Source of the DNA: a virus
Lineage: Duplodnaviria > Heunggongvirae > Uroviricota > Caudoviricetes
Virus record (IMG/VR): IMGVR_UViG_3300029643_000047
DNA: 6,720 nucleotides
Reading direction: 5' to 3' (one strand)
Shown piece after piece: positions 259 to 6,720 of this stretch (position 1 is the first letter of the stretch; the number at the start of each line of letters is the position of its first letter). The notes under the pieces were generated by a model. That model worked only from the letters and a program-made list of their open reading frames with translations, searched no databases and had not been told where the DNA came from. A program made the translations under genes and the position numbers.

Positions 259-945
259 TCACTCCTTCTCTTCTTTATCGTAGTGGAGTTGACCAATTTT
301 GATAAGAGGGCGTCCCTGAGATTTGCGGTGTAGATTGGTATCGCGCAGAGAATACACACAGCCACAATATTCCTGCTGATAGAATTTTTCGCGCTTGCTG
401 ATTTCAATCATGCGGGACGAGCCGCCCTGCTTGCGCCAGTTATAATCCCAGTACACCATGCCCGGATAATGCGCGACGGCTCGCCGCCCACAGTCGTTAA
501 CCTGCTGCATATTTTTCCAGCGTGAAATGCCCAGTGAACTGCTGATCACACTGAAACCATTTTCAGCAGCGTACAGCGCTGTCCGCTCAAAACGCATGTC
601 AAAACACATGGTACAACGGATCCCCCTCTCGGGCTCCCATTCCATTCCTTTGGCACGTTCAAACCAGTTGTCGGTGTCGTAATCAGCATCGATAAACGGC
701 ACGCCGTGTTGTTCAGCAAAGCGAATATTTTCATCCTTACGAATTAAATACTCTTTCTGAGGATGAATGTTCGGGTTGTAGAAAAAGATGGTATAGTCGA
801 TTCTCGAGGCCTGAAGTGCCTCCATCACTTCACCGGAACATGGAGCACAGCAAGAGTGCAGTAGTAGTTTGTTTGCCCCGTTTGGGAGCTCCAATTTAGG
901 CCGTTTGAAATCAGCAATAGTCATAAATATTTTTATTGGGGTCAT
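259..945 (-). CDS. queH: QueH-family (DUF208) epoxyqueuosine reductase homolog, predicted Fe-S enzyme of tRNA queuosine biosynthesis
   Basis: 228-aa ORF. The translation carries [11 protein letters not shown] near the N-terminus and EYCGCVYS near the C-terminus, the cysteine signature I associate with QueH/DUF208. Stop TGA at 261..259. Start ATG at 945..943 has no clear Shine-Dalgarno; an alternative ATG at 924..922 also lacks one, so the start is uncertain. Family assignment is from motif recognition, not a search. Confidence 0.75.
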
Positions 946-3942: not shown

Positions 3943-4039
3943 AACCGCCACCCTGGATAAGATCATGCCGGTGAAGGCGCACCCTTCCCAGACAAGACCA
4001 TGAAGCTTGCTGCTCATAAAACCCCCGAACACCGTGCTT

Positions 4040-4465
4040 TTAGTGCATCACCACAGCATTCCCTGCCGGGCCGCCGCGATTCATCTGGTCATACAAAACA
4101 ACCGCTGACGCAACAAAATCATCGACATCCTTCACCAGCCGATCCCTCCGTTCGACGATCTCACGGTAATATTCAGAACTGTGGCTGCGCATACGGGCCA
4201 CCAGCAAAGGCGGCATCGCCTTTTCGATCGCCGGTAACAGAGCCTGCATTTTTTCAACAGCATCAGGGGTGTCTTTATCCAGCCAACGGAAAATTTTCTG
4301 GGTATTACGGGCCAGGGCTTCCGGATGGCTGTCGTCGTACAGTTCAGGGAACGTCATCCCCAGTTCGAAATAAGTCCGGGCTATTTCAGCTGCAGGAACT
4401 TTCTCACCATCAGGGTATGCCCAGGCATTCATCGCCATGCGGATGTGCTCATGTTTGATTTTCAT
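4040..4465 (-). CDS. ydaT: YdaT (Rac prophage cII-like protein; toxic when derepressed)
   Basis: 141-aa ORF, start ATG 4465..4463, stop TAA 4042..4040. Its start overlaps the 3' end of ydaS by 17 nt. The translation (MKIKHEHIRMAMNAWAYPDGEK...) matches my recollection of YdaT, and the gene sits immediately after ydaS as in K-12 Rac. Confidence 0.85.
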   Translation of the reverse strand: MKIKHEHIRMAMNAWAYPDGEKVPAAEIARTYFELGMTFPELYDDSHPEALARNTQKIFRWLDKDTPDAVEKMQALLPAIEKAMPPLLVARMRSHSSEYYREIVERRDRLVKDVDDFVASAVVLYDQMNRGGPAGNAVVMH

Positions 4466-4772
4466 GAATCATTTGCCTCTTGATGCTTCGGGTATGATCG
4501 TTTTCGTCATTTGGTTGCTTCATCGACATATTCTGCGAATAACATGACGAGCGTCGTAAGTATGTCCAATCAACATCAGGACGAAGTTCTTCACACAGGA
4601 CACCACCTTTTGTTGCTCGTTCAATCGCAGGACATCTCTCAGCAGGTAACTGACGTACACCTTTGATCCATTGATTTACGCTTGGAGGAGATACACCTAA
4701 AAGCCTAGCCATTGCTGATTGCCCACCGACAACAGCACAAGCTCGTTTGAATGAATAGTTATCTTTTTTCAT
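4449..4772 (-). CDS. ydaS: YdaS (Cro-like HTH regulator of the Rac immunity region)
   Basis: Start ATG 4772..4770 with GGAG 8 nt upstream, giving 107 aa; the ORF track's longer form starts at a GTG at 4793 with no SD. HTH segment AMARLLGVSPPSVNQWIKGVRQLPAERC. Divergent from racR across a 124-bp operator region. Stop TGA 4451..4449. Confidence 0.85.
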   Translation of the reverse strand: MKKDNYSFKRACAVVGGQSAMARLLGVSPPSVNQWIKGVRQLPAERCPAIERATKGGVLCEELRPDVDWTYLRRSSCYSQNMSMKQPNDENDHTRSIKRQMIHENQT

Positions 4773-4799
4773 CGAATGAACTCCAAAAAACACGCAACA

Positions 4800-4829
4800 A
4801 TATTAGGCTTAGCCTAATGAAATTGTCAA
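4800..4829 (-). promoter_or_regulatory. pR-like sigma70 promoter for the ydaS-ydaT-replication operon
   Basis: On the minus strand: -35 TTGACA (plus 4829..4824), 18-nt spacer, -10 TAATAT (plus 4805..4800). The predicted transcript start is about 20 nt upstream of the ydaS ATG. The -10 overlaps operator site A and the -35 lies between sites A and B. Confidence 0.55.
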
Positions 4830-4868
4830 TAGGCTATGCCTAATACATCGAGAGTAGGGATTGCCTAA
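4802..4868. promoter_or_regulatory. Triad of operator-like inverted repeats (OR-like), consensus ATTAGGC-N3-GCCTAAT
   Basis: Site A 4802-4818 ATTAGGC TTA GCCTAAT has perfect 7-bp half-sites. Site B 4829-4844 ATAGGC TAT GCCTAAT and site C 4855-4868 TAGGG ATT GCCTAA are degenerate. Centre-to-centre spacing is about 26 and 25 bp. The sites lie between divergent racR and ydaS. Confidence 0.55.
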
Positions 4869-4896
4869 CGCGATGCGCATAGGAGACTATTAAGCA

Positions 4897-5373
4897 ATGC
4901 TTAGTGGTAAAGACTTAGGCCGAGCGATAGAGCAGGCCATTAACAAAAAAATTGCATCAGGAGCCGTCAAATCAAAGGCGGAAATCGCACGTCATTTCAA
5001 AGTCCAACCACCATCAATCCATGACTGGATTAAGAAAGGTTCGATAAGTAAAGACAAACTTCCAGAACTATGGCGTTTCTTTTCTGATGTGGTTGGTCCA
5101 GAGCATTGGGGGCTTAACGAATACCCCATACCAACCCCATCCACTTCAGATACAAAAAGTGAACTTTTAGACATAAACAGCCTTTATCAAGCCGCCTCTG
5201 ATGAAAAAAAAGCAATTGTGGCTTTCATCTTATCTGGAAATGCTACGGAGCCTAGTTGGGTTGATTATGACGTTCGCGCCTACATTGCCGCAATGGAAAT
5301 GAAGGTAGCTAACTATCTGAAAAATCAAGAATCAAAACGGAAAAGCCAGAACATCACCAAGACAGGAACTTAA
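4897..5373 (+). CDS. racR: RacR, prophage repressor (cI analog) with N-terminal HTH
   Basis: 158-aa ORF, start ATG 4897, stop TAA 5371-5373. The translation (MLSGKDLGRAIEQAINKKIASGAVKSKAEIARHFKVQPPSIHDWIKKGS...) matches my recollection of RacR. AGGAG lies 11 nt upstream of the ATG. The gene is divergent from ydaS and flanked on both sides by the same operator motif. Confidence 0.9.
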   Translation: MLSGKDLGRAIEQAINKKIASGAVKSKAEIARHFKVQPPSIHDWIKKGSISKDKLPELWRFFSDVVGPEHWGLNEYPIPTPSTSDTKSELLDINSLYQAASDEKKAIVAFILSGNATEPSWVDYDVRAYIAAMEMKVANYLKNQESKRKSQNITKTGT

Positions 5374-5447
5374 ACTTATATGGTCCGACGGGAAATTCCT
5401 AGTTCCCGTTAGTTAACTCCTACTACCTCTCCCACAAACCATCACCT

Positions 5448-5508
5448 ATTAGGTTGCGCCCAAATTATTAGGCATAGCCTATTGACAAGTAATTAGGCAT
5501 TTCCTATA
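5448..5508. promoter_or_regulatory. Second operator cluster (OL-like) downstream of racR with the same half-site motif
   Basis: Site D 5467-5483 ATTAGGC ATA GCCTATT is near perfect. Site E 5492-5508 ATTAGGC ATT TCCTATA has a degenerate right half. A weak third site at 5448-5465 has a good ATTAGG left half only. Sites D and E bracket and overlap the -35 and -10 of the promoter at 5482-5510. Confidence 0.5.
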
Positions 5509-5510
5509 GT
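5482..5510 (+). promoter_or_regulatory. pL-like sigma70 promoter with consensus -35 and near-consensus -10
   Basis: TTGACA at 5482-5487, exactly 17 nt spacer, TATAGT at 5505-5510. It fires away from racR into the downstream small ORFs. The 18-bp block GGCATAGCCTATTGACAA (5471-5488) is repeated in inverted orientation at 4840..4823 inside the pR-like promoter. Confidence 0.6.
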
Positions 5511-5691
5511 TTTCCCATACCAACCCATCCCGTCCCACACAATACAGGGCAATACCTCGAGTTACCAGGCAGTGGTCAGGGGTTAAGTAGCCAGCCCGAG
5601 GCGTAAGAACATGACGGCAGGGTTCAACTTTAATAACTATGCAGCAGGTTTTTGTTCCGCTACCCCGGCGTTAAGGGGAAATGAGGTCAGC

Positions 5692-5844
5692 ATGGATACT
5701 ATCGAGCTTGGCAACAACGAATCTCTGGTATGCGGCGTGTTTCCCAACCAGGACGGCACGTTTACCGCGATGACATATACCAGAAGCAAAACGTTTAAAA
5801 CTGAAGCTGGCGCGCGTCGCTGGTTAACCAGAAACACTGACTGA
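5692..5844 (+). CDS. Small early-operon protein, 50 aa (possibly YdaF-like)
   Basis: ATG 5692 with GAGG 5 nt upstream; stop TGA 5842-5844. The ORF track's longer form (from 5611) has no Shine-Dalgarno. The length is close to what I recall for YdaF of K-12 Rac, but that identification is from memory only. It lies about 180 nt downstream of the pL-like promoter. Confidence 0.55.
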   Translation: MDTIELGNNESLVCGVFPNQDGTFTAMTYTRSKTFKTEAGARRWLTRNTD

Positions 5845-5855
5845 TGAGGTTGACG

Positions 5856-6176
5856 ATGGAATTTAAAGATTTACCAGTACCATTCCAGGAAATGGCATCG
5901 AATGTGGTTCGCTCTCAACTGGCGACTCTTGACCTGAGTACCGTAGAAAAAGAAACCATCGACAATATATCCGGTAACGTACGCCGAGCCTTTATCGGGC
6001 TGTACGAAGAGAAGCAGCTCTCTGATAACCAGGATTTACATGAAAAATACTTCCTGGATCTAATGGACATCATTGATAAGGGGTTTGGCTTGTTAATGAA
6101 AAAGAAAGGGATTCGAATAGAACCCCTTGAAAATTACTTTGCAACAAAAAGCATTAATTCTTTTGATTCAAAATAA
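5856..6176 (+). CDS. Hypothetical small acidic protein, 106 aa
   Basis: ATG 5856 with GAGG 6 nt upstream. An alternative ATG at 5844 overlaps the upstream stop (TGATG) but lacks an SD. Stop TAA 6174-6176. The C-terminal half lies in AT-rich DNA. No recognisable motif. Confidence 0.6.
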   Translation: MEFKDLPVPFQEMASNVVRSQLATLDLSTVEKETIDNISGNVRRAFIGLYEEKQLSDNQDLHEKYFLDLMDIIDKGFGLLMKKKGIRIEPLENYFATKSINSFDSK

Positions 6177-6429
6177 GAGAATTAATTACAGACTTAACAT
6201 GCTCTTTCTCATGATTGAAGCTCTCATGATTGAAAGTGCCGGGTTGAAGCGAGTCGATATAATCAACAAGACTCTGTCGTACGACTTCATTTTTATCCAT
6301 AACAGATGCAAGAAATGAAATTGCTAAAAGAGTTATATCACTACGCGCCGCAGCATGTTGCAATGCTTTATCAAAATTATTAATCTGGCGTATCAGGGAG
6401 TTAATGATTTCATCATTTTCAGTCGACAT
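6154..6429 (-). CDS. Hypothetical small protein, 91 aa, convergent with the upstream plus-strand ORF
   Basis: ATG 6429..6427 preceded on the minus strand by AGGAGGG with a 4-nt spacer; stop TAA 6156..6154. The frame stays open upstream to the window edge, but that 97-codon extension is Arg/Pro/Thr-rich, GC-rich and non-protein-like, so I call the internal start. The region is AT-rich (about 36% GC by hand count over 6181-6420). Confidence 0.55.
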   Translation of the reverse strand: MSTENDEIINSLIRQINNFDKALQHAAARSDITLLAISFLASVMDKNEVVRQSLVDYIDSLQPGTFNHESFNHEKEHVKSVINSLILNQKN

Positions 6430-6720
6430 TTCACCCTCCTGAGGGTTGGTGATTAAGGAGTTCTCCACGGGTGAGGTGGAGTGCGTGCGCCGGACACGGG
6501 TGAGCATCCGGCACTGACAGTTTACTGAAAGGATATTTCCCTGAAAAGTCAGACCATAACGCGAAAGCGCCCGGCGAGGTAGCTGGTTCATAGATAGCCT
6601 GTCGTTAAATTTTCGTCGACCGTGCGTTTCCGGTTGTGGCAATCCGCGAAATGGCGCGGCGGTAAGTATGGCGGGGTTATTCCTTCCCCGTTGAGGACAC
6701 CGAGTTGTCAGGTTGACCAT

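Follow-up and report, generated by a model that had tools for sequence, protein, structure and literature searches.

In phage lambda, the immunity region (OL/PL-rexBA-cI-OR/PRM/PR-cro) places one repressor gene between two operator clusters of the same motif, and each cluster overlaps an early promoter directed outward. Here, we compare this arrangement with the racR locus in a stretch of 6,720 nucleotides of virus DNA (Caudoviricetes; IMG/VR record IMGVR_UViG_3300029643_000047), referred to at its full length as the window. A preliminary description, made from the sequence alone, had placed racR between an inverted pair of near-identical promoter/operator cassettes firing outward, and had likened them to the lambda pL-cI-pR logic. 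We consider it highly likely, with a probability of roughly 0.85, that a Rac-type lambdoid prophage has its immunity module, with two RacR-controlled outward promoters, at window 4472-5515, and we infer RacR occupancy at 5467-5508 and initiation near 5517.

A close described system is the Rac prophage carried by Escherichia coli K-12. GCCTAA/TTAGGC repeats were noted there, and RacR was found to bind the racR-ydaS intergenic region in vitro and by chromatin immunoprecipitation with quantitative PCR (Krishnamurthi et al., PMC5700373). A single K-12 ydaS start was mapped by primer extension and a TTGACA/TAATAT promoter (PydaS) was assigned, the activity of which was abolished on replacement of the -10 (Gucwa et al., PMC9638921). 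In the same study, RacR footprinted on PydaS at the lowest concentration used, and the RacR operators were defined as (T/A)TAGGC-n3-GCCTA(T/A), with O3 lying over the initiating racR ATG. Compared with K-12 Rac O1-O3/PydaS, the window has the same motif, an identical TTGACA/TAATAT promoter and, likewise, an operator that covers the racR ATG. Since all of these published elements are kept, the minus-strand cassette is established biology in an orthologue, and the right-operator half of the arrangement is published rather than new. The K-12 RacR publications differ in their scope, which is the racR-ydaS intergenic region only. The genes ydaG and ydaF are absent from PMC9638921, and a further paper calls the RacR regulon, including the ydaFG operon, uncharacterised and describes xisR and intR as far from racR (PMC11014345). 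In the searchable Rac literature we found no description of a left operator or a PL downstream of racR; an earlier account is possible in older work, such as studies of sbcA mutations or of kil in Rac. The downstream cassette thus appears to be undescribed for Rac, though predictable from relatives.

Two of these relatives carry other repressors. In the Qin prophage, dicBp lies between dicA and ydfA and has operators like those of the dicA-dicC intergenic region, and deletion of dicA raises dicBp 22-fold (PMC10448788). Qin resembles the window in having a non-cleavable repressor and a left operon that begins with DUF1391/ydfA, followed by dicB and ydfD, and the two are 92% identical over window 5654-5823 and 97% identical over 6444-6720. 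Qin differs in its repressor, which is DicA, as well as in operator sequence and leader, and homology starts only at 5654. CP-933P of E. coli O157:H7 has a promoter, PL933P, with PaaR2 repeats downstream of the repressor operon (PMC8630535). It shares with the window YdaS/YdaT-type cro and cII analogues and the presence of repressor repeats at a downstream PL as well as in the intergenic region; as in several RacR-type loci, cargo lies between repressor and PL, here a toxin-antitoxin system (PMC8630535). Unlike the window, its repressor is PaaR2 instead of RacR, and its operator consensus consists of GTTTAGTAA repeats.

Operators and promoters on the two flanks of racR

The repressor gene, racR (4897-5373, plus strand), encodes a protein of 158 amino acids that scores 244.6 bits against the NCBIfam equivalog NF049929.1 (cut-off 200), which places it in the RacR family. 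The window gene is 100% identical to an annotated racR locus, and its product is 97% identical to RacR cluster P0001 and 90% identical to the K-12-type cluster P0010.

The 18-bp block noted earlier, GGCATAGCCTATTGACAA, has exact matches at 5471-5488 on the plus strand and at 4840..4823 on the minus strand, two being observed where 0.01 was expected, and none of 200 shuffles reached two. The perfect inverted repeat extends over 23 nt (TATTAGGCATAGCCTATTGACAA, 4823-4845 and 5466-5488) and not 18 bp. It holds a complete palindromic operator, ATTAGGC-ATA-GCCTAT, abutting the TTGACA -35, so that the consensus -35 of the preliminary description stands while the operator half-site it had proposed is replaced by a full operator. 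A consensus scan of 4400-5900 returned two sigma-70-like sites only, both directed away from racR, in agreement with the proposed pair of inverted outward cassettes. The PR-equivalent promoter (PydaS; 4800-4829, minus strand) has its -35 TTGACA at 4829..4824, an 18-nt spacer and its -10 TAATAT at 4805..4800 (10/12 consensus positions). The PL-equivalent promoter (5482-5510, plus strand) has its -35 TTGACA at 5482-5487, a 17-nt spacer and its -10 TATAGT at 5505-5510 (11/12), and it is invariant in five E. coli/phage relatives. The starts predicted from the -10 positions are at about 4793 (minus strand) and about 5517 (plus strand). Start sites had previously been expected near 4792 and 5517; the former differs from our prediction by one base and the latter coincides with it.

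A search for the operator motif TAGGC-n3-GCCTA, allowing up to two mismatches, gave eight matches in the window, where 1.6 were expected. All but one of them fall within 4804-4903 and 5450-5506, with cores at 4804, 4830, 4855 and 4891 on the right side and at 5450, 5469 and 5494 on the left side. The same motif thus clusters on both flanks of racR, and each cluster overlaps a promoter that, by sequence consensus, points away from the gene. On the right side, the operator in the PR spacer and -10 (4802-4818, ATTAGGC-TTA-GCCTAAT, perfect core 4804-4816) is kept in all RacR-type loci examined, and the operator abutting the PR -35 (4828-4844, AATAGGC-TAT-GCCTAAT, perfect core 4830-4842) lies in the left arm of the repeat, 4823-4845. 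A third right-side operator (4853-4869, TAGGG-ATT-GCCTA, one mismatch) is located in the racR promoter region and corresponds to the -35/-36 operator of all homologous loci. The fourth, the published O3 (4889-4905, TAAGC-AAT-GCTTA, two mismatches), spans the racR ATG at 4897. Cognate operators are thus found upstream of racR with one of them over the ATG, matching the published arrangement (PMC9638921).

On the left side, the operator abutting the -35 (5467-5483, ATTAGGC-ATA-GCCTATT, perfect core 5469-5481) lies in the right arm of the repeat, 5466-5488, and recurs with little or no change in loci of K-12, Morganella, Proteus, a metagenome-assembled genome and phages. The operator in the PL spacer and -10 (5492-5508, ATTAGGC-ATT-TCCTATA, core 5494-5506) has one mismatch. 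A weak possible third operator (5448-5464, ATTAGGT-TGC-GCCCAAA, two mismatches, one good half-site) is of uncertain function; its ATTAGGT half is kept in E. coli relatives and is absent in other genera. In each cassette, the second operator is situated 25-26 bp promoter-distal to the first and covers the spacer and -10. This confirms the earlier observation of a further operator and a -10 after each block, the cores at 5494-5506 (one mismatch) and 4804-4816 (perfect) overlapping the respective -10s.

From these elements, a mechanism can be proposed in which RacR, the repressor of 15-17 bp palindromes, (A/T)TTAGGC-n3-GCCTAA(T/A), would act at two promoters of shared design. In each, an operator ending in ...CCTA runs into TTGACA, and a second operator 25-26 bp on, ending in CCTAATAT or CCTATAGT, supplies the -10. 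Because the operators overlap both hexamers, RacR dimers on the operator pair would cover, and so occlude, the -35 and -10 of a near-consensus promoter. The spacing of OR1 and OR2 in lambda is 24 bp, and the similar centre-to-centre spacing of 25-26 bp makes pairwise cooperativity of RacR on the operator pair plausible by analogy. The minus-strand copy (4800-4845) is PR/PydaS, which drives the cro-like ydaS, the cII-like ydaT and the replication genes. As the PL equivalent, the plus-strand copy (5466-5510) would drive a DUF1391-...-dicB-exonuclease-xis-int operon, the K-12 counterpart of which is ydaG-ydaF-kilR-racC-recET-xisR-intR. Loss of RacR would then free both promoters together, one protein being sufficient to silence both early operons.

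Conservation of the downstream cassette and exchange of the immunity module

The operators and hexamers of the downstream cassette are all invariant, within variable intergenic surroundings, among the E. coli relatives of the window (K-12 Rac, Escherichia ruysiae, phage vB_EcoS-683R6 and another E. coli isolate); the K-12 counterpart of 5466-5510 is found at 4038-4082 of locus L001. The 91-bp cassette occurs, unannotated, in 1086 of 5426 complete E. coli genomes, in agreement with the 1085 that have the racR locus.

Among more distant hosts, one genome per species was scanned, which gave 23 loci that encode an N-terminal domain of the RacR type; the hosts belong to Enterobacterales (Mixta, Morganella, Proteus, Erwinia and Klebsiella) and Betaproteobacteria (Achromobacter, Burkholderia, Pigmentiphaga, Herbaspirillum and Nitrosomonas). 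The upstream operator set is present in all of these loci. A downstream operator pair, 25-26 bp apart, is present in 15 of 22 non-redundant sequences (the window and 21 loci). Its first operator ends in GCCTATTGAC and its second in CCTAATAT or a near variant, and the distance between them is 25 bp (26 bp in L025) in every cassette-bearing locus. The pair lies anywhere from 68 to 2490 bp past the repressor stop codon, and the cassette is thus conserved independently of this distance. The same pair was found in three more loci, belonging to the E. coli isolate ApSLC23, to phage vB_EcoS-683R6 and to KpF5, an isolated Klebsiella phage in which it sits after a cargo gene encoding a DUF450 protein of 389 amino acids. 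In total, 18 RacR-type loci, from two proteobacterial classes and including real phage, have the downstream cassette in outward orientation. A regular expression for the composite signature, an operator followed by TTGAC, had 34 matches in 139 kb from 23 RacR-type loci, ranging from Enterobacterales to Burkholderiales and including KpF5, compared with a mean of 0.07 and a maximum of two in shuffles. All 34 point outward: those just upstream of the repressor gene are on the minus strand, and those downstream of it are on the plus strand.

Between the repressor and the left-side cassette, several loci carry one to four genes (L031 3454-4623; L017 3490-5281; L025 1974-3932; L013 4128-5402). They include the DUF450 gene of KpF5 and, in Burkholderia, genes for proteins of 376 and 143 amino acids. 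By analogy with rexAB in lambda, this slot may hold cargo expressed in the lysogen. A separate observation concerns the Betaproteobacterial loci (L013-L018 and L025), in which the PR -10, TAATAAT (minus strand, some 50 nt upstream of the repressor gene), precedes the ATG of the divergent cro-like gene by just 5-9 nt. This spacing suggests that the cro transcripts of these loci are leaderless or near-leaderless.

Covariation between operator and repressor within the RacR family was uninformative, since the DNA-binding domain and the motif are both nearly invariant, and modules with other repressors were therefore compared in its place. Prophages with the same backbone and other repressors align with the window as far as 4471, where ydaT starts, and once more from 5516, 5525 or 5526, the right homology junction being at most about ten bases from the predicted PL start. 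These breaks delimit an exchangeable immunity unit of about 4472-5515, comprising ydaS, the right-side operators, racR, the left-side operators and PL. Three heteroimmune modules each carry a palindrome of their own, TACCCAYRGGTA, a GTAC-type sequence and GTTTT-n-AAAAC, and in all three modules the palindrome is present at the PR of the module as well as directly ahead of the junction. The operator/-35/operator/-10 layout is alike at both promoters in at least one of them, the TACCCAYRGGTA module (L028). The module is exchanged as a unit together with both operator/promoter sets, as lambdoid immunity regions are.

We also observed a perfect 13-nt direct repeat, CCCATACCAACCC, at 5125-5137 (inside racR) and at 5514-5526, where the predicted PL start and the heteroimmune junction coincide. 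By our estimate, 1.1 kb would be expected to contain about 0.01 repeats of this kind. The repeat could reflect microhomology remaining from an exchange of modules, or a chance match in C-rich sequence.

Expression of the left operon and competing explanations

In K-12, expression of the left operon responds to RacR. When RacR was lowered, ydaC, kilR and ralA rose more than 70-fold and ydaF, ydaG, ydaE and racC about 40-fold (PMC6765115), and xisR and intR rose about 100-fold (PMC11014345). The same genes were induced when racR transcription was blocked by CRISPR interference (bioRxiv 10.64898/2026.09.06.749655). Since this induction occurred despite the block, read-through from the racR promoters is an unlikely source.

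Taken together, the RacR equivalog assignment, the published operator, the outward cassettes in 18 loci, the exchangeable module and the RacR-dependent left operon of K-12 support the lambda pL-cI-pR logic that had been proposed for this locus. Besides the single repressor gene between two operator clusters of one motif and the outward early promoters that these overlap, the window shares with lambda operators with a centre-to-centre spacing of about 24-25 bp, a cro-like gene in divergent orientation ahead of cII-like and replication genes, a left operon with kil, recombination, xis and int functions, and a module that is exchangeable between heteroimmune phages. Cargo between repressor and OL is a further common feature, with rexAB in lambda and DUF450 and others in RacR-type loci. 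The systems differ in that the window has two strong and one doubtful operator on the left side and four on the right, whereas lambda has three and three. RacR also lacks an S24 autocleavage domain and has a C-terminal domain of unrelated fold (PMC11014345).

Several observations weigh against RacR control of the downstream promoter. The PL -10, TATAGT, is covered by an operator with one mismatch (TCCTA), and RacR occupancy may therefore be weaker there than at PR. Six of the 23 scanned loci have no downstream cassette within the sequence covered; in these, the sequence may stop short or the prophages may have decayed. Finally, YdaS or YdaT could in principle mediate part of the left-operon derepression seen in K-12.

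The downstream operators might instead serve mainly as an auxiliary anchor, either for a RacR loop of about 640 bp to the right-side operators or as a block to racR read-through, the embedded promoter being secondary. Such a role would tighten PydaS repression and racR autoregulation and is compatible with two RacR-controlled promoters, but as the main function of the cassette we judge it unlikely. Lambda CI is known to bridge OL and OR as an octamer. Two strong operators are found at each end of the E. coli-type loci, invariably 639-641 bp apart, a scan for intrinsic terminators found none between racR and PL, and RacR elutes as an octamer on size-exclusion chromatography, interpreted by the authors as four dimers on four upstream repeats (PMC11014345). 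An anchor alone, however, would have no need of the near-consensus promoter (11/12) that is present in every copy across two proteobacterial classes, nor would it by itself account for a left operon that is strongly RacR-dependent in K-12. Moreover, the OL-OR distance ranges from 591 to 2809 bp across loci. Across genera it shows no conserved fractional helical turn, giving no sequence support for a phased loop, and with neither distance nor phase conserved the octamer bridge stays speculative.

The identity of the two arms raises the question of whether the downstream cassette is an inert relic, left by duplication or gene conversion of the PR cassette, with the left operon under indirect control, through YdaS, YdaT or some other factor, or under another promoter. 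The arms are identical over 23 nt, including 4-5 positions without obvious constraint, which suggests sequence transfer, and the right-side operators of E. coli-type loci contain a 25-bp insertion with a PL-type operator. A relic would nevertheless not be expected to keep its orientation, both operators and both hexamers intact in 18 loci with unalignable flanking DNA, or to form the edge of an exchangeable immunity module, and heteroimmune modules show the same two-site design with other motifs. We therefore regard this explanation as very improbable. That the repeat is a chance match is less probable still and was ruled out, both by the shuffles of the window (0.01 expected, 0/200 reaching two) and by the composite signature across loci (34 versus 0.07).

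The comparison between genera bears on the origin of the repeat. In loci outside E. coli, the operator by the PR -35 is TTAGGCAATTCCTA, and the operator by the PL -35 is typically TTAGGCATAGCCTA in Enterobacterales. The E. coli Rac-type right side keeps a degenerate TTAGGCAATTCCTA-type copy (4855-4867) that no longer abuts TTGAC. Adjoining it is a 25-bp insertion, CTCTCGATGTATTAGGCATAGCCTA, which sets a PL-type operator against TTGACA (window versus Mixta; 4823-4847 versus L007 2935-2975). This insertion accounts both for the 23-nt identity and for the presence of four right-side operators in E. coli Rac-type loci (centres at -87, -61, -36 and 0 from the racR ATG) instead of the three in other genera (-60, -35 and 0). 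We infer from the alignment that the 25-bp unit may be an insertion or conversion of an operator copied from the left-side sequence. A joint reading of these points, which we put forward only tentatively, is that a RacR octamer, in place of four dimers aligned on the right-side operators, might bridge the left and right operators about 640 bp apart, that the E. coli PR might have been rebuilt by the 25-bp copy of a left operator, and that the cassette might be an ancient portable unit travelling with the DNA-binding domain whatever its C-terminal sensor. If the octamer bridge were true, deletion of the left pair would weaken repression of the toxic ydaST operon and racR autoregulation.

Repressor domains, leader and gene neighbourhood

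A Pfam search of the 158-residue RacR product gave no domain match, including none to the S24 peptidase. The RacR-type N-terminal DNA-binding domain, of about 75 amino acids, is nearly invariant and is joined to varied C-terminal parts: a RacR-specific domain in E. coli and an S24/LexA-like peptidase, in proteins of 227-366 amino acids, in Pectobacterium and Betaproteobacteria. Pectobacterium P0101 is of the S24 type, and the Betaproteobacterial proteins of 227-366 amino acids have GDSMxP motifs. In the S24-bearing homologues, PF00717 was matched in P0101, P0102 and P0114, and the C-terminal part of RacR does not align with them. The same operators and cassettes accompany every C-terminal type (P0101, P0102, P0114; L013 3001-4101, L015, L016, L018, L023, L025). 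Downstream of the gene, 13 nt past the racR stop codon, a hairpin (GACGGGAA ... TTCCCGTT, 5386-5411) has no T-run and shows one compensatory G-C/A-T change between the window and the K-12-type sequence, a single change between two lineages being insufficient for a call. It may serve to stabilise the 3' end of the racR transcript or to terminate it weakly.

An Rfam scan of the whole window (E <= 1) gave no matches, indicating no known RNA element in the PL leader, and the predicted leader (5517-5695) folds no better than shuffles (z = +1.19), giving no evidence of structure. No N/nut antitermination was recognised in the Pfam, Rfam and leader-folding results, which did not include a dedicated nut search. 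Over roughly its first 50 nt (window 5510-5569), the predicted PL transcript is C-rich and G-poor (GC skew -0.48), unstructured and conserved across heteroimmune prophages, and this start of the leader resembles a Rho loading site. Rho-dependent termination keeps Rac kil silent (PMC4150792).

Window 4400-5900 is 100% identical to E. coli 2017C-4173W12, in the record of which the region lies within a lambdoid prophage inserted beside ompW; K-12 Rac aligns to window 4442-5679 with 86% identity. In the annotation of the identical record, the minus strand of the prophage encodes a Q antiterminator, RusA, QueH, DUF977, DUF1627, an IstB-like ATPase, an HTH_36 replication protein, YdaT and YdaS, and the plus strand after racR encodes DUF1391, a hypothetical gene, dicB, DUF1482, an exonuclease, an excisionase and an integrase. 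Pfam matches to YdaS/P22_Cro, YdaT, HTH_36 and IstB-like families likewise place cro-like, then cII-like and then replication genes in divergent orientation. The gene ydaS (4449-4772, minus strand; YdaS_toxin 3.4e-30, P22_Cro 8.8e-09), annotated in the identical record (locus L002 9050-9373), is the cro-like lead gene of the operon of the minus-strand promoter and is followed by ydaT (4040-4465) and the replication genes. Facing PL, the first annotated gene is the DUF1391 (ydaF/ydfA-like) gene (5692-5844, plus strand; 9.3e-28), and its operon runs on beyond the window in the identical record with dicB, exonuclease, xis and int.

Elsewhere in the window, a gene for QueH (epoxyqueuosine reductase; 259-945, minus strand) is located among the late-early genes of the prophage, a host-type tRNA-modification function carried as prophage cargo. 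The stretch at 6444-6720 that is 97% identical to Qin corresponds to an untranslated Qin sequence between ydfC and dicF. A minus-strand open reading frame of 188 codons (6154-6720) is probably spurious past the annotated gene of 91 codons at 6154-6429.

The general picture of lambdoid regulation is unchanged by these results, the locus having the standard lambdoid OL/PL-repressor-OR/PR architecture. They provide a simple sequence-based way to define the limits of Rac-type immunity modules and of the cargo slot that separates the repressor gene from the left-side operators, and the exact coordinates of the downstream cassette are targets for gel-shift, reporter and chromatin immunoprecipitation work. 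For Rac itself, recent papers report that lowering RacR turns on kilR, recET, xisR and intR and triggers excision. The cassette at 5466-5510 supplies the missing cis-element, a predicted RacR-controlled PL from which one leftward transcript could reach kilR, recET, xisR and intR.

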